The position numbers and the translations under genes were made by a program. A stretch of 64,000 nucleotides of DNA from a virus, in the UHGV virus genome UHGV-0211740; one strand, written 5' to 3'. Numbering within the stretch: position 1 is the first letter of the stretch; each line of letters starts with the position of its first letter. Shown here piece by piece: positions 2,296 to 62,714 of the stretch. Below the pieces are notes generated by a model. The model made no database searches. It worked only from the letters and a program-made list of their open reading frames with translations, and was not told the DNA's origin.

Positions 2296-3579
2296 TCATT
2301 CCAGAACCTCCCAAGTGTCAGGGTTAACATTTCGGACGCAGATGCCGACAGGGAATTGGTAGTTGTTGTCTTCTGTCCTTGCTTGATATTTGAAGGTGAC
2401 AAACTTGCCGATCATTTCCTGCATCCTGTCATAGCTACGCTCCTCGTGCGTGCCTTTCATCTTCATTTTAACAACGATACCTTCCTTGTCAACGCAGATA
2501 AGAACACCTTCATCATTCTTATCTTTCTCAACGTCAATAACTTTCACCTCAGCATCGTTGAACTTTTTCCATTTCAATGCTTCAGATGTTCGCTGACCAT
2601 ATTCATATTTACCGCAGAAGTTACGCATGATAGTACCTTCATATCCTTCTGACATGAATACACCAACAGATTCTTCGCAATGATCAACTGTGTACGCAAG
2701 CTCTGCGTCAACAACCTTGATATGGTCAAGCATCAGAGTGGTAATGGTATCTTCTGCATCCATAAGGTCCTTGCATCTTCCAGATTCTGTTTCCGGATCC
2801 CACCATACCTTGTCACTAGGGATGTCGAAAATATGATACTCTAAGTCATAGCTACAGTACCCTCCGTAACGCAAATCATCACGAACAGGCTCAACATCAA
2901 CAGGAATATCTACCTTATTGAAGTTTTTGTATGTTGATAAGCCTGCCTTAATTGCGGCATGACGGCGTTTTTTATCTGCCTCGTAGTCTTTATCTATCTC
3001 GGCCTGAATCTCTTCCTGTGTGCGCCACCGTTTAGCAAGAGACACTATTTTCTGCAGAGGCAGACCATGAATATAGATCTCTCCGTCGAGCTGTTTAATC
3101 CCGGTGGTGAAGTGGAAAGAACGAAGTTGCTCCAGAAGCTTTCCTTGAATAGGGTAGGACTTATTACCACGGGAAATAAATTTAGGCTCACCGTTTTGGA
3201 AAACAACCAGTAGACGAAGGCCATCTAACTTACGCAAGATCCAGCAAGGTAATTTAAGTGCCTTTCCACGCTTCAGGTAGTCATGCATCAGCATGGGTAA
3301 AAGGTCAACCCCCTGCTCGCAATCTTCCATATTTTCAACATACCCCAGACGGACTTGTTTTTCCCACTTACTGATCGCTTCCAGCTCAGCCTGTTGCTCA
3401 GCTGTAGTTTCATTGGCACGGCCCACGTTCTTAGGTGTGCAGATCGTCTCTTTGTATTGCAGTTTACCATCAAGCTTGCCAAACTCTACGATAACCTTAT
3501 CACCATCCGTGAATACTTTCCACTGTTGGTAGCTGCCATCTTTGTTCAGTGCGTACAGTGTTGTTTTGATCTGATGCAT
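2296..3579 (-). CDS. ATP-dependent DNA ligase
   Basis: 427 aa; nucleotidyltransferase motifs in order: I LRKLDGLR, III LDGEIYIHG, IV EGTIMRN, V LKWKKF. Confidence 0.65.
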   Translation of the reverse strand: MHQIKTTLYALNKDGSYQQWKVFTDGDKVIVEFGKLDGKLQYKETICTPKNVGRANETTAEQQAELEAISKWEKQVRLGYVENMEDCEQGVDLLPMLMHDYLKRGKALKLPCWILRKLDGLRLLVVFQNGEPKFISRGNKSYPIQGKLLEQLRSFHFTTGIKQLDGEIYIHGLPLQKIVSLAKRWRTQEEIQAEIDKDYEADKKRRHAAIKAGLSTYKNFNKVDIPVDVEPVRDDLRYGGYCSYDLEYHIFDIPSDKVWWDPETESGRCKDLMDAEDTITTLMLDHIKVVDAELAYTVDHCEESVGVFMSEGYEGTIMRNFCGKYEYGQRTSEALKWKKFNDAEVKVIDVEKDKNDEGVLICVDKEGIVVKMKMKGTHEERSYDRMQEMIGKFVTFKYQARTEDNNYQFPVGICVRNVNPDTWEVLE

Positions 3580-4206: not shown

Positions 4207-4920
4207 TTAAATATACTCTGTTACATCCTTGAAGCTTGAAGGCTTCATAATCTTACCTTTGCTGTCAAGGAAGATGATAACCTTATTACCGTTGTAGAAT
4301 TCTTCTTTAGCAACAAAACCTTCATATCTACCATCGAAGCGTCGCTCAAGATCTTTAATCTCTAACTCTACAAGTTGTTCAACAGGCATATCTGCACTGG
4401 CACCGTGTGAATACCGTAGATGGTTGACCCGTGCAAACTTGCTGTCATTAGATTTGAGAACCTTCCGCATCATCCCGCACACATCACCGCGAAGCTGGAA
4501 TAGCAAAGCTGTTGACAACTCCGCCAGGCGGTAAGCAGAAGCTTTTTGCTTGGAGGTGTTTTTTGCAGCGATCAGTGTGTCATAGAACTCACCGATCTTA
4601 AACTTAAGACCTCGCGGATTATCAAACAGGTTTGACCACTTTTCATGATTATCATTAACAAGATAAGCGGCATAGCTTGTAACAACATGAAGATCGCAGG
4701 CCTCTTTTAGCAGATGATCTCCACCATCACCTTTCTCCAGCTCTTCCAAAACCTCATTAAACTCTTCCTCAATGAAGCTAAGTTGTAATTCGAATGGTGT
4801 GTATGATTTTTTCACTTTAGCTGCCACACGGTTCCAGTTTTCCACCCAGTTGGCAGACCAAAGGTAGTTTTCAGGTTGGGACAGTTTTTCCAGATTGTCA
4901 ATTAACTTAGTATTCAGCAT
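4207..4920 (-). CDS. putative MazG-like nucleotide pyrophosphohydrolase domain protein
   Basis: 237 aa; N-terminal acidic helices IEEEFNEVLEELEKGDGGDHLLKEACDLHVV resemble the paired E-x-x-E / D-L-L motifs of MazG-type NTP pyrophosphatases; tentative. Confidence 0.3.
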   Translation of the reverse strand: MLNTKLIDNLEKLSQPENYLWSANWVENWNRVAAKVKKSYTPFELQLSFIEEEFNEVLEELEKGDGGDHLLKEACDLHVVTSYAAYLVNDNHEKWSNLFDNPRGLKFKIGEFYDTLIAAKNTSKQKASAYRLAELSTALLFQLRGDVCGMMRKVLKSNDSKFARVNHLRYSHGASADMPVEQLVELEIKDLERRFDGRYEGFVAKEEFYNGNKVIIFLDSKGKIMKPSSFKDVTEYI

Positions 4921-4933
4921 TAAAGGTCTCCTT

Positions 4934-5695
4934 TTAAAGTTCCATGAAGTTTTCTACAGTTTCAATCAATGTTTTATCAGAGAAAGCGTCAACCGCACCG
5001 TTAAACCAAACAGGAATGCCGCGATCCTCATACTGGTAAATGTCACTACGTGAAATGCCATTCTCCTCCAAATGCTGTGAGTCATATTTGTTAACAATCA
5101 ACAGCTTAGTTCCCTTGTTACAGGCAGGGAACAGCTCCCAGTTAAAATTGATAACTGTGTTTGAGCACCCTACAAGGATAACCATATCATTGCTTGTCAG
5201 AGAAGTCAACAGATCATACATGTCTGTATACTTTGGAGCAACTTCTCCGAAGAACACCACATTAGGCTTAACCCAAATATACTCGCCTGCATCTACCTCC
5301 GAATACCCAATGTCTTTAATGACATTGCTTCCTTCATCGTCCTCATAGACTATTTCTGGCAAATACCCGTGGACATGTAAAATATCTTCATGTTTTACAC
5401 CAGCACGCTCTAGCAAATCATCTACATTGGTGGTCAGGTTGATCACACGACCAGACCAACGAGAATACCACTCTGCGATCCGGAGATGTGCAAGATTAGG
5501 CTCAACACTGCCCAAAGCTATACGCCGTGCATTGTAAAAGTCATGCACCTTATAATAGTTCTTGGCAAAGGTGTGGATGTTACACACCTCATCGATGCTG
5601 AAATTCTCCCACATTGCAGTGCTACCAGATCGAAAGGTGGGGATACCGGATTCAGCACTCAAGCCAGCACCAGAGATAACAATCAGTCGTCGCAT
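4934..5695 (-). CDS. Sir2-family (sirtuin-like) NAD-dependent protein
   Basis: 253 aa; Sir2 motifs in order: GAGLSAESGIPTFR, TTNVDDLLERAG, HVHG, VVFFGE, ILVGCS; no CxxC...CxxC zinc ribbon visible. Confidence 0.8.
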   Translation of the reverse strand: MRRLIVISGAGLSAESGIPTFRSGSTAMWENFSIDEVCNIHTFAKNYYKVHDFYNARRIALGSVEPNLAHLRIAEWYSRWSGRVINLTTNVDDLLERAGVKHEDILHVHGYLPEIVYEDDEGSNVIKDIGYSEVDAGEYIWVKPNVVFFGEVAPKYTDMYDLLTSLTSNDMVILVGCSNTVINFNWELFPACNKGTKLLIVNKYDSQHLEENGISRSDIYQYEDRGIPVWFNGAVDAFSDKTLIETVENFMEL

Positions 5696-5703
5696 AGGTG
5701 TCC

Positions 5704-6051
5704 TCAGTAAATGTTCTGTTTAATCTCTATTCCAAACTTTTTGAACGAATCTGCAGCAAGCATAAATTTACGAGCTGCCGATGGGTTAGAAGTATGCACG
5801 AAAATCTTCACGTTGTCAACCACAGGTGGCTTGCCAAATACAAATAGCTCTTCCAGTCTCAATAAAACAGCATATCCGTCTTGATCAGAGTCTTCACCCA
5901 AATCGTGGTCAAAGAACCACTCTGTCACTCTTCGATACATTTTAGCAGAATTATTAAGAAACTCCATAGCCTCTTGTGAGGTTTTAAACCAAATTGCATC
6001 TGCCTGTCCGTAGTCAGCTGGGTTACGCAAATCATCTATCCAAACTTTCAT
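5704..6051 (-). CDS. hypothetical protein, receiver-like fold suspected
   Basis: 115 aa; pattern KVWIDD...FFDHDLGED...DGYAVLLRL...KIFVHTSN loosely resembles a CheY-like alternating beta/alpha layout; no confident family. Confidence 0.4.
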   Translation of the reverse strand: MKVWIDDLRNPADYGQADAIWFKTSQEAMEFLNNSAKMYRRVTEWFFDHDLGEDSDQDGYAVLLRLEELFVFGKPPVVDNVKIFVHTSNPSAARKFMLAADSFKKFGIEIKQNIY

Positions 6052-6059
6052 ACATACCT

Positions 6060-6668
6060 CTAAAAATTTTCTATCGGTGTTTTTGAAGATAAAGCTAAAA
6101 CTATCTTATTCTCAATTCTTCGTAATCCTAATAGCAACCTACTATCATCTACAGTTTTAATCAAGTCTCTAAGAAGTTGCAGTTTACATTCTAAGTATCT
6201 CATGTGTGCCTCAATCTGCGTGGGGAAGGTTCCAAGATAAACCTGCGTGTCCTTAACCCCATCTTTGCAATAGGCAGCAAAAGATGGGCCTTTTCTTCTT
6301 ACTCCCATCAAACACTCCCCTCTTTGCGGCATCCTTGCTACAAAGAAGTTGTTTATTTCCCGGGGAACAAAAATACACGCTTCTGGGCAGTATATAAGAT
6401 TATTCTCGAAGAGAATATCTTTATCTAAAAATTTATCCCGCCAATCTTGTTTTTCCATCCAACGCTTGAAGTTGCTGAAGATTTTCCATTCTTCACAAAC
6501 TTCTACCATAGCATAAGCTTCAAATTTCTTGTTTTTAAGGTAGCACCTCCCTAGCATATTTGACCACGTCATATAAAAAGGACACATTATTCTCTTTCCA
6601 GTATCCTTGTCCAAAACCCTGACAGGATAGTCTGCATCATTAACACCAACACCATGTACAAGTTTCAT
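6060..6668 (-). CDS. putative homing endonuclease-like protein with AP2-type DNA-binding region
   Basis: 202 aa; segment KDGVKDTQVYLGTFPTQIEAHMRY fits the AP2 pattern (LGTF.T.EEA..AY) common in phage HNH/AP2 endonucleases; N-terminal GVGVNDADYPV motif. Confidence 0.4.
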   Translation of the reverse strand: MKLVHGVGVNDADYPVRVLDKDTGKRIMCPFYMTWSNMLGRCYLKNKKFEAYAMVEVCEEWKIFSNFKRWMEKQDWRDKFLDKDILFENNLIYCPEACIFVPREINNFFVARMPQRGECLMGVRRKGPSFAAYCKDGVKDTQVYLGTFPTQIEAHMRYLECKLQLLRDLIKTVDDSRLLLGLRRIENKIVLALSSKTPIENF

Positions 6669-6712
6669 ACAGACCTCTTAAGCTGAAATGATTAAAAAGA
6701 ACTTCCCCTTCT

Positions 6713-7669
6713 TCATTGCATATAGTCCTCGTTGTGGAAATAGTAGTCAAGTATCTCACGACGTTCCTGCTCAAGGAGGCAGTTCCACACATCCTCTGTG
6801 TAGTTGTTACGAATGAAGTTTACCATGCCATAAAACTCTTCGTCAATACGTTTAAAGATATCCTCATCCCAAATCTTCCAAGCTCTCCCTCTCATTACGG
6901 CCTTCCGTGCCAGGTAGTATGGAGATTTGATCTTCAACTGCAGGTCATAAGGGTAGTAAGGATTACGGATCATGTACCCTTCGCCCCTTGTTTCTGCAGC
7001 TAATTCTTTTGCATAGCTGAACGGAATTTCACGCACAGTGTGAGGACGTTTTGCACCAAGATACTTGGCAATACCGTCTAAAGCCGCTTCTGGTAGCATT
7101 ATTCCAGAATCATTGTATCTACAACCTATCAAATACGCACCATGATCCTCATGAACAATATGCGGGTCTGAAGGGTGACAAATTTCAAACATAAATGTCA
7201 TGTTTTCATGGCCCATAACCTTCTTGATAAGATCTAAATTGCCACATTGCTCCTGAATGGTTTCCTTTGCAAGGTTACAATATGGAGAATCAAGAGACCC
7301 AGTCGTTGAGAATAATAGTTCACCTTTATGAGAGGATACCACGCCAAGGAACCCGTTCTTTTTCTCTACAGCCGTCACAAGCTTATTGTCAGGTAGGTTG
7401 GTTGAGTTTTCTCCCAAGTTAAACACTTTTGTGAAGGGCCATGCCACAACATTCCCCTCGTTACCGACAACAATGCCTCGGCACTCCAGTAGACGCGGAG
7501 AAAAATGCCATAAATTGTTGTAGAATACTTTTCTGGCATATTTGTAGATCTTTAATCCGAGATCTGGATAATACCGACTGGTTACAAGACCTTTATCCAC
7601 TAAATCATCTGCATTAAAATACTTCATCATGCGTTCCTCATTTGTCATTTTGTTCCACAATCTTCCCAC
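6713..7669 (-). CDS. putative RNA ligase (nucleotidyltransferase superfamily)
   Basis: 318 aa; motif I VEKKNGFLG (K-x-N-G), motif IV EGYMIRN, motif V LQLKIKSP; divergently adjacent to a kinase/phosphatase pair. Confidence 0.5.
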   Translation of the reverse strand: MGRLWNKMTNEERMMKYFNADDLVDKGLVTSRYYPDLGLKIYKYARKVFYNNLWHFSPRLLECRGIVVGNEGNVVAWPFTKVFNLGENSTNLPDNKLVTAVEKKNGFLGVVSSHKGELLFSTTGSLDSPYCNLAKETIQEQCGNLDLIKKVMGHENMTFMFEICHPSDPHIVHEDHGAYLIGCRYNDSGIMLPEAALDGIAKYLGAKRPHTVREIPFSYAKELAAETRGEGYMIRNPYYPYDLQLKIKSPYYLARKAVMRGRAWKIWDEDIFKRIDEEFYGMVNFIRNNYTEDVWNCLLEQERREILDYYFHNEDYMQ

Positions 7670-7691
7670 ACAAACAGTATCATGTCAACAC

Positions 7692-7720
7692 TTGAAATGC
7701 TCAAAAGAACACGGTATACT
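7692..7720 (+). promoter_or_regulatory. sigma70-like promoter
   Basis: TTGAAA (7692-7697), 17-nt spacer, TATACT (7715-7720); about 30 nt upstream of the kinase gene, in the divergent intergenic region. Confidence 0.45.
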
Positions 7721-7748
7721 GTCGTTAAAATTAAAACGGAGGGTCGCT

Positions 7749-8159
7749 ATGTCTAAAATGCTATATATCGTGCGTGGTCTACCAGGGTCTGGCAAATCAA
7801 CACTGGCAAATGCGTTATCTTTAGAAGGTCTGTATCCACATTTTGAGAACGACATGTTCTGGTACGACGATGATGGAAATTACAACTGGGATGCAAGTAA
7901 AGTGACACTTGCTGCAAAATGGTGCAAAGATAATATAGAAGATATGATGCGTATGGGGTACGACCGTGTCGTGGTAAGCAACACATTCACAAAAGAAAAG
8001 CATGTGCAAGAGTATATTGACATGGCGATCCGTAATGGGTATAATTACACAGTAATCGTGGTGGAGAATCGCCACGGTAACAAAAGTATCCACAATGTTC
8101 CAGAAAAGGTTGTGGATCGTATGGAACGTGAACTGAAAAACTGTATTAAACTTAAATGA
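7749..8159 (+). CDS. P-loop kinase, polynucleotide kinase-like
   Basis: Walker A GLPGSGKST near N-terminus as in T4 Pnk kinase domain; start set at ATG 7749 with GGAGG RBS (ORF track start 7629 is upstream in-frame). Confidence 0.55.
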   Translation: MSKMLYIVRGLPGSGKSTLANALSLEGLYPHFENDMFWYDDDGNYNWDASKVTLAAKWCKDNIEDMMRMGYDRVVVSNTFTKEKHVQEYIDMAIRNGYNYTVIVVENRHGNKSIHNVPEKVVDRMERELKNCIKLK

Positions 8160-8166
8160 GGATAGT

Positions 8167-8721
8167 ATGAAATATTTTATAACAAGTGACACACACTTTC
8201 TCCACCAGCGTGTTATGGAGTTCGATTCTTGTCAAAAGCACAGATCGCAGTATAACCACGATCTTGATAGCATGAATGCAGGGATCATAGACAAGTGGAA
8301 CTCAATTGTGTCACCATGGGACACTGTGTTCCACTTGGGAGACATTGCATGCACTAAGGATAAGAATATCAACAACTTACTGCCTGAAATTCTAAATATG
8401 CTGAACGGACATATTATTCTTGTTCGTGGTAACCATGACACAAGGACGACTGTCAGAATTATGAAAGAGTTCTGTCATGAGGTTGTAGATTATTACGAGC
8501 TTCGCCACAACAAGAATCTGATCTGTATGAGCCATTACCAGTTTGCAACGTGGAACAGAAAGCCCCACGGATCAGTTCAACTGTTTGGTCATGCTCACGG
8601 AACCACACAACAGTTATTTGGCAGGCAGTTGGATGTTGGTTGGGATGTATGGGGTAGACTGTTACCACTAGAAGAGGCATACAGCCTTGCAATGAGTTTT
8701 GATATTGACAGCAGGGAGTAA
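8167..8721 (+). CDS. calcineurin-like metallophosphoesterase
   Basis: 184 aa; metallophosphatase motifs SDTHF, HLGDI, GNHD in order. Confidence 0.75.
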   Translation: MKYFITSDTHFLHQRVMEFDSCQKHRSQYNHDLDSMNAGIIDKWNSIVSPWDTVFHLGDIACTKDKNINNLLPEILNMLNGHIILVRGNHDTRTTVRIMKEFCHEVVDYYELRHNKNLICMSHYQFATWNRKPHGSVQLFGHAHGTTQQLFGRQLDVGWDVWGRLLPLEEAYSLAMSFDIDSRE

Positions 8722-8768
8722 TCCCTGCTATATTAAAGAAAATAGCCACACAAGGAGAATCAGGAGAT

Positions 8769-62234: not shown

Positions 62235-62714
62235 TCATGGCTCTTTCTCCGGTTCAGGATCTGGGTAATCTTCAATAATAAAAGGCCATCCATTACGCTT
62301 TGCGTCAGACTTATACTTAATCTCCTTCATTGCGAACTCTAACTGATTTTTAGCAGGAATGCAAGCCGGAGAATCATCCACCCAGATGTCAGGGTAGATA
62401 TCGAACTGTGCCAAGTAGGCTGCCTTTTGTACACCGCCTGTGTAGAACACACCTACATCCAACTCCTTGCGCCAATACTCAATGTCCACGTTGTCTTGAG
62501 TGATGAACCGAGAAGTCACAAGGTATACTGTCCACCCTTCCTTTTTCAAGTCCTTAATCAGGCGGGAGAAGATGAAAGGACTCGCATTAAACGTTCCATC
62601 AAAGTCAATGGCAATGATGTGTGTGCCGTGGCGAGTCTCATATGGATTGCTCGTGGTGAGATTGCTGTAGTTAAAAGGGACCTCTTCCCCGCAGTAGCTG
62701 TAGTCCATATTCAC
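62235..62714 (-). CDS. HAD-superfamily phosphatase (nucleotidase or polynucleotide 3'-phosphatase-like)
   Basis: 159 aa; HAD motif I IIAIDFDGT, motif II VYLVTSR, later acidic motif IWVDDSP. Confidence 0.5.
   Translation of the reverse strand: MNMDYSYCGEEVPFNYSNLTTSNPYETRHGTHIIAIDFDGTFNASPFIFSRLIKDLKKEGWTVYLVTSRFITQDNVDIEYWRKELDVGVFYTGGVQKAAYLAQFDIYPDIWVDDSPACIPAKNQLEFAMKEIKYKSDAKRNGWPFIIEDYPDPEPEKEP

Follow-up and report, generated by a model that had tools for sequence, protein, structure and literature searches.

Why should a phage carry, at a single locus, genes for an RNA ligase, a polynucleotide kinase and a metallophosphoesterase (MPE)? The question is raised by a 64,000-nucleotide (nt) stretch of the virus genome UHGV-0211740 (the window, in what follows), which comes from a Vequintavirinae (rV5-like) E. 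coli phage and in which the three genes lie between positions 6713 and 8721. An earlier note on this DNA had taken them for an RNA repair cassette of the T4 Rnl/Pnk kind, with the end-healing functions on separate polypeptides, a view that is borne out by profile matches to T4 Rnl1 and Pnk, by the linkage of the genes and by gene fusions. With a probability of about 0.68, judging from sequence, the three genes would form a complete pathway for "heal-and-seal" repair of RNA, divided among three small proteins. As a cassette they are real and non-random, and probably functional. We infer that it acts on RNA, that the MPE carries out the end chemistry described below and that the whole serves in counter-defense; by analogy, one might suppose that anticodon nucleases are what it is directed against. 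The three open reading frames (ORFs) were found where they had been claimed, each above its Pfam cut-off:

6713..7630, minus strand: predicted Rnl1-type ATP-dependent RNA ligase, 305 amino acids (aa); the ORF spans 6713-7669, and the likeliest start is the ATG at 7630, preceded by a GAGGAA Shine-Dalgarno sequence and in agreement with the annotation of Escherichia phage EduardKellenberger (Bas59); alternative upstream starts are at 7648 (ATG) and 7669 (GTG).
7631..7748: intergenic gap of 118 nt between ligase and kinase genes, with a Shine-Dalgarno sequence at either side and, on the plus strand, a single candidate for a sigma-70-like promoter (7692-7720).
7749..8159, plus strand: candidate stand-alone T4-Pnk-type 5'-OH polynucleotide kinase, 136 aa, lacking a phosphatase domain; the start is likely at 7749, after a GGAGG Shine-Dalgarno sequence, and a longer ORF from 7629 is probably unused.
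8167..8721, plus strand: compact binuclear MPE of the aq_1665 type, 184 aa, starting 7 nt past the kinase stop; predicted 3'-end healing enzyme (2',3'-cyclic phosphodiesterase/phosphatase).

What kind of ligase is this? It matches the Pfam family RNA_lig_T4_1 (PF09511) at 54.8 bits (cut-off 28.3) and PHROG 562 with E = 3e-66. A database search returned 554 homologues of about 300 aa, and all those with an organism name are from phages; the family is found in 660 of 50,697 sequenced phages, including the Vequintavirinae and Pakpunavirus that are candidates for therapy. Motifs I (KxxG, with the lysine nucleophile), III, IV and V are all present, as K90-x-N92-G93 (the KxNG motif, K90-K-N92-G93), F148-E149, E217-G218 and K233-x-K235, and the residues that are invariant in an alignment of 40 homologues include R51, K68, F70, K90-x-N92-G93, E149, E217-G218 and K233-x-K235. 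These map onto T4 Rnl1 R54, K75, F77, K99, G102, E159, E227, G228, K240 and K242; the first three are the N-terminal residues specific to Rnl1, which are thus kept as R51, K68 and F70. Of the residues known to be essential in T4 Rnl1, the only one without a counterpart is K119, which is Thr in the phage ligase. Mutational studies from the Shuman laboratory have reportedly found the aligned T4 Rnl1 residues to be essential.

When the family profile was compared with solved proteins, T4 Rnl1 was the sole significant match (E = 2e-14, T4 residues 51-250). The AlphaFold (AF2) model of the ligase (pLDDT 92) gave fungal Trl1-LIG and T4 Rnl1 as best Foldseek matches (E about 1e-13, TMq 0.59-0.68), with Rnl3 next and Rnl5, Rnl2 and DNA ligases far behind. 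Between the two leaders, TMq was 0.68 for Trl1-LIG and 0.63 for T4 Rnl1, and Trl1 went undetected among the solved proteins by the sequence profile. Because profile match, conserved residues and model superposition agree, the protein is assigned, on sequence and model, to the Rnl1/Trl1 clade of RNA ligases, and it is not a T4 RnlA equivalog. The profile comparison that the earlier note had proposed thus places it in the Rnl1 family (PF09511, T4 Rnl1). The related claim that this ligase is unlikely to be the replicative one holds as well, in view of the family match and of a separate DNA ligase gene in the window.

The kinase is less easily placed from its own sequence, since the single 136-aa protein has no match among solved proteins, although it scores 40.5 bits with Pfam AAA_33 (cut-off 27) and has the P-loop GLPGSGKST. 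A family profile was built from 37 homologues out of the viral loci described below. Its best solved match is T4 polynucleotide kinase (1LY1/1LTQ), over the full length and with E = 3e-13; after a match to adenylate kinase that covers the P-loop only come PSTK, Pnkp1 (from the Pnkp1-Rnl-Hen1 complex), the Clostridium thermocellum Pnk domain and mammalian PNKP. Scores are much lower for nucleotide kinases, whose matches are limited to the surroundings of the P-loop. As with the ligase, then, the comparison came out as had been expected, with T4 Pnk the nearest solved relative and polynucleotide kinases ranking above nucleotide kinases. G10, G15, K16, D35, Y45 and P118 are invariant in the family and G13 and T18 are conserved too; D35 is in register with the general base of T4 Pnk, D35. 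The DxDxT acyl-phosphatase domain of T4 Pnkp is absent, the 136 aa corresponding to the kinase domain alone.

Which protein, then, would heal the 3' end? The MPE is a candidate. It scores 23.4 bits with Pfam Metallophos (cut-off 21.5), and all five metal-binding motifs of the two-metal type, DxH, GD, GNH(D/E), H and GHxH, are invariant. Its nearest solved protein is aq_1665 of Aquifex (1XM7), a product of structural genomics on which no functional literature was found. In the comparison with solved proteins, aq_1665 has a value of 17.3, followed by LpxH (11.4), MJ0936 and YfcE (about 10.5), the Pseudomonas putida nuclease MPE (10.2), lambda phosphatase (9.2) and the CthPnkp phosphatase (6.9). 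A kinship with either the CthPnkp or the lambda phosphatase was considered and rejected, as it has support from neither sequence nor structure. Homology by itself does not indicate RNA end healing, so the role of the MPE is argued from context. On that basis, an MPE of the aq_1665 type is likely to be the missing 3'-healing enzyme of the cassette. We also lean, if only slightly, toward the broader view that these proteins are an unrecognized class of RNA 3'-end healing enzymes, which together with the miniature Pnk would make up a "split Pnkp" in hundreds of phages.

The context was assessed in 80 viral contigs encoding a relative of the ligase (36-89% identity), by profile searches of the ORFs within 8 kb of the ligase gene. 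An MPE was found in 72 of the 80 and a kinase in 64, with median start offsets of about 1.0-1.2 kb from the ligase, and several of the loci without one or the other end at a contig edge. The three occur in at least four orders (MPE-Rnl-Kin, Kin-Rnl-MPE, Kin-MPE-Rnl and Rnl-MPE-Kin), and they are co-stranded throughout, the exception being the rV5 lineage with its inverted Kin-MPE pair; this inversion accounts for the divergent layout in the window. Looked at from the other side, 79 loci centered on the MPE included a kinase in 59 cases, the RNA ligase in 48 and a DNA ligase in five; among the 48 that had at least 3 kb on both sides, 38 had the kinase, 33 the ligase and seven neither. Where MPE and kinase occur without the ligase family, their neighbors include HD proteins, DSP-PTPase-type phosphatases and DUF2828/DUF7788 proteins. 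Two such loci (L097, 4402-10810, and L109, 4124-6874) have HD-domain, DSP-PTPase-type and DUF2828/DUF7788 proteins together with an unassigned 345-aa ORF, and may represent a different RNA-end-processing island.

Cellular genomes were searched as well, each of 185,579 species of bacteria and archaea being represented by one genome, and yielded only 35 loci. Fusion proteins are found in two groups. In Cardiobacteriaceae (L166, 5383-7513, a metagenome-assembled genome), a protein of about 490 aa has the kinase at its N-terminus and the ligase at its C-terminus, and an MPE of the aq_1665 type follows directly. In Leptolyngbyaceae cyanobacteria (L183, 4726-6864, Leptolyngbya sp. PCC 7375), all three activities are combined in one 712-aa protein, with an AAA_33 kinase (20-156), a Metallophos domain (185-357) and RNA_lig_T4_1 (451-643). 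No name or description was found for either fusion in the searches made. The joining of the three activities in one chain is strong evidence that they share a common substrate. An RtcB gene lies 1.6 kb from the gene for the tri-domain protein in Leptolyngbya PCC 7375.

Could the three proteins nevertheless have nothing to do with RNA? The kinase might phosphorylate nucleotides or nucleosides, the MPE might be a nucleotidase, or a DNA nuclease working with the nearby DNA ligase, and the "RNA ligase" might be a tail-fiber attachment factor like T4 gp63. Many GenBank records do give relatives of the ligase the "tail attachment" name, which has been copied from record to record, and a DNA ligase gene lies within 8 kb of the RNA ligase in 27-30 of the 80 loci. 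The invariant catalytic residues of the ligase, on the other hand, would not be needed by a tail-fiber chaperone; the kinase profile ranks polynucleotide kinases over all nucleotide kinases and the 5'-OH-activating Asp is kept; the MPE keeps company with the RNA ligase far more often than with a DNA ligase (48 versus five of 79 loci); and the fusions of the ligase with kinase and MPE argue for a common substrate. Such a scheme is scarcely tenable.

How would the repair pathway work? A ribonuclease (RNase) of the host, for which an anticodon nuclease or some other metal-independent defense RNase is the most plausible choice, would leave one end with a 2',3'-cyclic phosphate and one with a 5'-OH. 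The MPE would open and remove the cyclic or 3' phosphate, leaving a 3'-OH; the miniature T4-Pnk-like kinase, with Asp35 as its general base, would phosphorylate the 5'-OH; and the ligase, after adenylylating itself on Lys90, would pass the AMP to the 5'-phosphate and seal the break.

The same three predicted activities (5'-kinase, 3'-end healing and ATP-dependent sealing) are provided in T4 by Rnl1 (gp63) and Pnkp (pseT), which repair tRNA-Lys cleaved by PrrC. The likeness extends to the ligase, which is in the same Pfam family and has the residues specific to Rnl1, to the kinase, whose closest solved relative is the T4 Pnk kinase domain, and to the setting, a lytic phage that also encodes tRNAs. 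Unlike T4 Pnkp, the cassette kinase is a free-standing protein of 136 aa and 3' healing is assigned to an unrelated binuclear MPE instead of a DxDxT (HAD) domain; the ligase is also shorter than T4 Rnl1 (305 versus 374 aa), with a truncated C-terminal domain. The bacterial Pnkp systems (C. thermocellum Pnkp/Hen1 and Pnkp1-Rnl-Hen1) combine kinase, metallophosphoesterase and ligase by the same enzymatic logic, and the domain order of Pnkp, kinase-MPE-ligase, is that of the cyanobacterial homologue of the phage ligase. In the phage, by contrast, the activities are on three polypeptides and the ligase is Rnl1-type rather than a Pnkp-type (Rnl4) adenylyltransferase. No Hen1-like gene is annotated in the flanks of the relative, in what remains of the equivalent region of the window or beside the cyanobacterial fusion, although no dedicated Hen1 profile search was made. 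The third parallel is with fungal and plant Trl1 (LIG-KIN-CPD) and Tpt1: the fold of the phage ligase is as close to Trl1-LIG as to T4 Rnl1, and some homologues from bacteria are fusions of ligase and kinase. The cassette differs from the Trl1/Tpt1 system in having neither a 2H CPD domain nor KptA/Tpt1; in the phage, CPD and Tpt1 are paralleled by an adjacent putative cyclic-phosphate processing receiver-like (cREC) protein and an NAD+-using Sir2 protein (PMC9503650).

These last two and a MazG-like gene, all next to the ligase, had been overlooked when the cassette was first noticed, and the literature counts them in the same system. The genes on this side of the ligase are listed here:

4207..4920, minus strand: candidate MazG-like nucleotide pyrophosphohydrolase, 237 aa; lineage-specific accessory (PHROG 671).
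4934..5695, minus strand: Sir2-family protein, 253 aa; lineage-specific accessory (Pfam SIR2), without the zinc-ribbon cysteines.
5704..6051, minus strand: cREC protein, 115 aa; lineage-specific accessory (PF20274).
6060..6668, minus strand: HNH homing-endonuclease gene (PHROG 953, E = 4e-69), between the cREC and ligase genes.
2296-3579, minus strand: ATP-dependent DNA ligase, separate from the RNA ligase; its presence, noted earlier, is confirmed.

The cREC protein matches PF20274 at 61.4 bits (cut-off 27) and keeps the receiver-like acidic site (D6-D7, D48/D50, T87-S88 and K95); a cyclic phosphodiesterase function has been predicted for such proteins by Iyer et al. (PMC7824862, PMC9503650). 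The Sir2 protein (95.7 bits with Pfam SIR2) conserves GAGxS, TTNVDD and the catalytic H109, and has no Cys at all between H109 and KPNVVFFGE, so that the zinc-ribbon module of sirtuins is absent, which suggests a substrate other than an acyl-lysine peptide. The MazG-like protein matches PHROG 671 (E = 6e-22) and Pfam PRA-PH only at E = 0.067, with E52, E53, E56 and D76 conserved. Within 8 kb of the ligase, a MazG-like gene was found in 14 of the 80 loci, Sir2 in 11 and cREC in 10, and in this sample all three are confined to Vequintavirinae-like contigs of about 145 kb.

The locus has in fact been described before, as the "sirtuin-centred RNA repair neighbourhood, type 2" that Iyer, Burroughs, Anantharaman and Aravind presented in 2022 (PMC9503650) and for which Escherichia phage V5 and Proteus phage Mydo are the prototypes. 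Locus and phage group are both identical with those considered here, the locus comprising a sirtuin, a T4-like tRNA ligase, cREC, a nucleotide kinase, MazG and a calcineurin-like phosphoesterase, and the Mydo ligase is 48% identical to that in the window. Those authors proposed that the sirtuin removes RNA 2'-phosphates in the manner of KptA/Tpt1 and that cREC resolves cyclic phosphates (PMC9503650, section 3.7.3). They center the system on the sirtuin and call the phosphoesterase "occasional", whereas in the counts given here the ligase has its constant partners in the MPE and the kinase, with sirtuin, cREC and MazG as lineage-specific additions.

Might an NAD+-dependent, yeast-like repair be the main route instead? 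In that case, cREC or the MPE would convert the cyclic end to a 2'-phosphate, the Trl1-like ligase would seal the 3'-OH/2'-PO4 end, Sir2 would transfer the 2'-phosphate at the junction to NAD+ as an analogue of Tpt1/KptA, and MazG or cREC would clear the by-products (Iyer et al. 2022, PMC9503650). Besides being a published prediction already, this scheme can draw on the cREC, Sir2 and MazG-like genes that directly adjoin the ligase, both in the window and in some 10-14 related phage contigs of about 145 kb, on the fit of the ligase model to fungal Trl1-LIG, which is at least as good as that to T4 Rnl1, and on a Sir2 protein that retains the NAD+ and catalytic residues without the zinc module, suggesting a substrate that is not a protein. 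The sequence profile of the ligase, however, matches T4 Rnl1 and not Trl1, and the trio of kinase, MPE and ligase is found with neither Sir2 nor cREC in about 85% of the ligase loci and in the bacterial fusions, which means that Sir2 and cREC are unnecessary for the core. We know of no sirtuin that acts on RNA 2'-phosphate. As the main route, NAD+-dependent repair is therefore unlikely. The three accessory proteins probably do add an NAD+-linked branch to the heal-and-seal pathway, for ends that carry a 2'-phosphate or a cyclic phosphate, but it is doubtful whether such an add-on works just as Iyer et al. proposed. By the same token, we consider it improbable that the zinc-less sirtuin is an NAD+-dependent RNA 2'-phosphotransferase and cREC a cyclic phosphodiesterase, an arrangement by which the phage would reproduce, with non-homologous proteins, the chemistry of eukaryotic tRNA splicing by Trl1/Tpt1.

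NAD+ metabolism also appears beside the trio in other phages. Genes annotated as ribose-phosphate pyrophosphokinase (Prs-like) and nicotinamide phosphoribosyltransferase (Nampt-like) adjoin it in Pseudomonas phage K8 (L161, 4322-6867) and Vibrio phage Pontus (L162, 5483-6900), and in 25 of the 80 viral loci both genes lie no more than 8 kb from the ligase. We take this to be the gene pair of the published phage NAD+-reconstitution pathway. Prs-like and Nampt-like salvage genes were not found anywhere in the 64-kb window.

Several observations weigh against the three-protein heal-and-seal pathway, or against too close an identification with that of T4. The ligase fails the NCBIfam equivalog model for T4 RnlA (TIGR02308), with 38.4 bits against a cut-off of 242, and its C-terminal helical tail has only about 65 aa (residues about 237-301), compared with the tRNA-specificity domain of about 120 aa in T4 Rnl1; with both the short tail and the low score, tRNA specificity cannot be assumed. 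In the kinase, the equivalent of T4 Pnk Arg38 is missing (an aromatic residue is found at that position) and the lid arginines are only partly conserved, T4 R122 being aligned with R108, which is present in about 60% of the homologues, and T4 R126 with K112. The presence of cREC and Sir2 in the rV5 lineage hints at a 3'-end chemistry unlike that of T4. Finally, no biochemical or genetic data on the three proteins or their close homologues were found in the literature.

How much of this is new? The cassette itself is already known, to go by its records: it is annotated in GenBank, including the records of the BASEL collection, and has been predicted to be an NAD+-linked RNA repair system in phage V5 (PMC9503650). 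In Bas59, the equivalents are named "RNA ligase", "polynucleotide kinase" and "putative phosphoresterase". The cassette of Pakpunavirus has been read in the same way, and its authors noted that the kinase has no 3'-phosphatase domain (PMC12846349). The present analysis contributes the figures on linkage, the fusion proteins from bacteria and the proposal that the missing 3'-healing enzyme is likely to be the aq_1665-type MPE.

Defenses that cleave tRNA or other RNA are common in bacteria, and include PrrC, RloC, PARIS, retron-linked PtuAB, P2 Old, Cas13 and Cas12a3. To our knowledge, T4 Rnl1/Pnkp is the only phage repair answer that is understood experimentally. Should the prediction for the trio hold, no RNA repair module of phages would be more widespread, the structural-genomics family of aq_1665 would gain a function, and small, separable enzymes would become available for the manipulation of RNA ends.

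Would tRNAs be the substrate? The phage has a set of its own:

11660..12468, plus strand: tRNA cluster (ARAGORN and Rfam), with Arg-UCU, Tyr-GUA, Ser-UGA, Lys-UUU-like (97 nt), Thr-UGU, a CAU-anticodon tRNA (Met by ARAGORN, Ile in Bas59) and Pro-UGG.

The cluster had been counted as seven members 4 kb away. Six genes are found by both ARAGORN and Rfam, while the seventh is borderline and found by Rfam only; the distance is about 4 kb from the ligase and 2.9 kb from the stop of the MPE. Lys-UUU, Tyr, Arg and Thr tRNAs are targets of PrrC/RloC, PARIS, retron-linked nucleases, colicins and P2 Old (PMC10264068, PMC12409363, PMC12445682). Since the phage set includes these, broken anticodon loops are the obvious candidate substrate, although RNAs of other kinds, if cut by metal-independent RNases, are just as possible. 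From tRNAs attacked by P2 Old the anticodon arm is amputated, and the T4 ligases are unable to restore such molecules (PMC12445682). The cluster is a neighbor of the cassette and may be functionally related to it.

The same neighborhood could be read to mean that the cassette serves the RNA metabolism of the phage itself (maturation of the tRNA cluster, RNA circularization or processing of mRNA ends) and is not directed against nucleases. The tRNA genes do lie 3-4 kb downstream on the strand of the kinase and MPE, and in archaea there are housekeeping roles for Rnl3-type RNA ligases (PMC9014305). Yet introns are absent from all seven tRNA genes, and other phages place the module beside genes of counter-defense, namely the Prs-like and Nampt-like NAD+ genes. 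As far as we know, tRNA processing in bacteria needs no ligase. A purely domestic role is thus very unlikely, and repair of nuclease damage by the split heal-and-seal pathway is preferred.

Two members of the cluster are unusual. The Lys-UUU-like gene (12125-12221, plus strand; 97 nt) is just above the Rfam cut-off (29.4 versus 29 bits) and was missed by ARAGORN; its Bas59 equivalent is a 97-nt tRNA-Lys. It has the anticodon UUU in the loop UUUUUAA and about 26 extra nt in the variable region, which give it a long arm as in class II, uncommon in a tRNA-Lys, and it might be a decoy or variant tRNA that evades nucleases. A role in tRNA splicing was considered and rejected, because the Rfam alignment puts the extra nt in the variable region and not in the anticodon loop. 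The tRNA-Ser(UGA) gene (11937-12026, plus strand) has tRNA-Sec as its best Rfam model, at 43.6 bits, which is below the cut-off of 47 but above the general tRNA model.

A further phosphatase had been proposed at 62235-62714 on the minus strand, and this proposal did not stand. There is a DFDGT motif in the 159-aa ORF, but searches of Pfam, NCBIfam and the PDB produced no match; it belongs to PHROG 4919, where no function is assigned, and its best Pfam match, to a 5'-nucleotidase, is not significant (E = 0.17). As the missing 3'-phosphatase it was rejected, since it lies 54 kb away, past the structural module (about 13 kb to 61 kb), and has no homologue near the ligase in the 80 loci. With neither family nor structure support, and in view of its position beyond the structural genes, this HAD-like ORF was dropped from the cassette.

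Nor did support emerge for a divergent promoter region between the ligase and kinase genes, which had been described as lying "back to back". The divergent layout is correct, but the genes are arranged head-to-head. The gap contains one plus-strand sigma-70-like site (TTGAAA-17-TATACT, 7692-7720) and none on the minus strand, and a divergent promoter was rejected because the total number of sites in the region was not above that in shuffled sequence in a simple sigma-70 scan. The GC skew changes sign near the gap. A perfect sigma-70 consensus (TTGACA-17 nt-TATAAT, 12/12) occurs at 8017-8045 on the plus strand, within the kinase ORF and about 120 nt upstream of the MPE start; the exact match is absent from the equivalent site of the two closest loci in the set compared, L001 and L002. 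Another site (11/12, with an extended -10 TG) is located at 8705-8734, upstream of a helix-turn-helix gene.

The cassette region is matched at the DNA level in more than 120 sequenced phages, the closest being Vequintavirinae sp. EcoIv14a_Aya (98%), and rV5-like coliphages, among them several of the BASEL collection, match at about 90%. PADLOC defense models gave no meaningful match. In Bas59, one flank of the cassette has genes for a hypothetical protein, a sirtuin, more hypothetical proteins and an ATP-dependent DNA ligase, while a regulator, small ORFs and a tRNA cluster make up the opposite flank. The HNH gene (6060-6668, minus strand), which sits precisely between cREC and the RNA ligase in the window, is missing from most rV5-like relatives; their DNA matches begin at about position 6708, and in Bas59 cREC abuts the ligase gene. 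The endonuclease is a passenger, outside the pathway. Some 18-23 GenBank records without annotation, bearing names such as "Campylobacter phage C2/C11/C14..." (e.g., MG065655, MG065652 and MG065653), are 90-97% identical to the region, and their host assignment looks doubtful.

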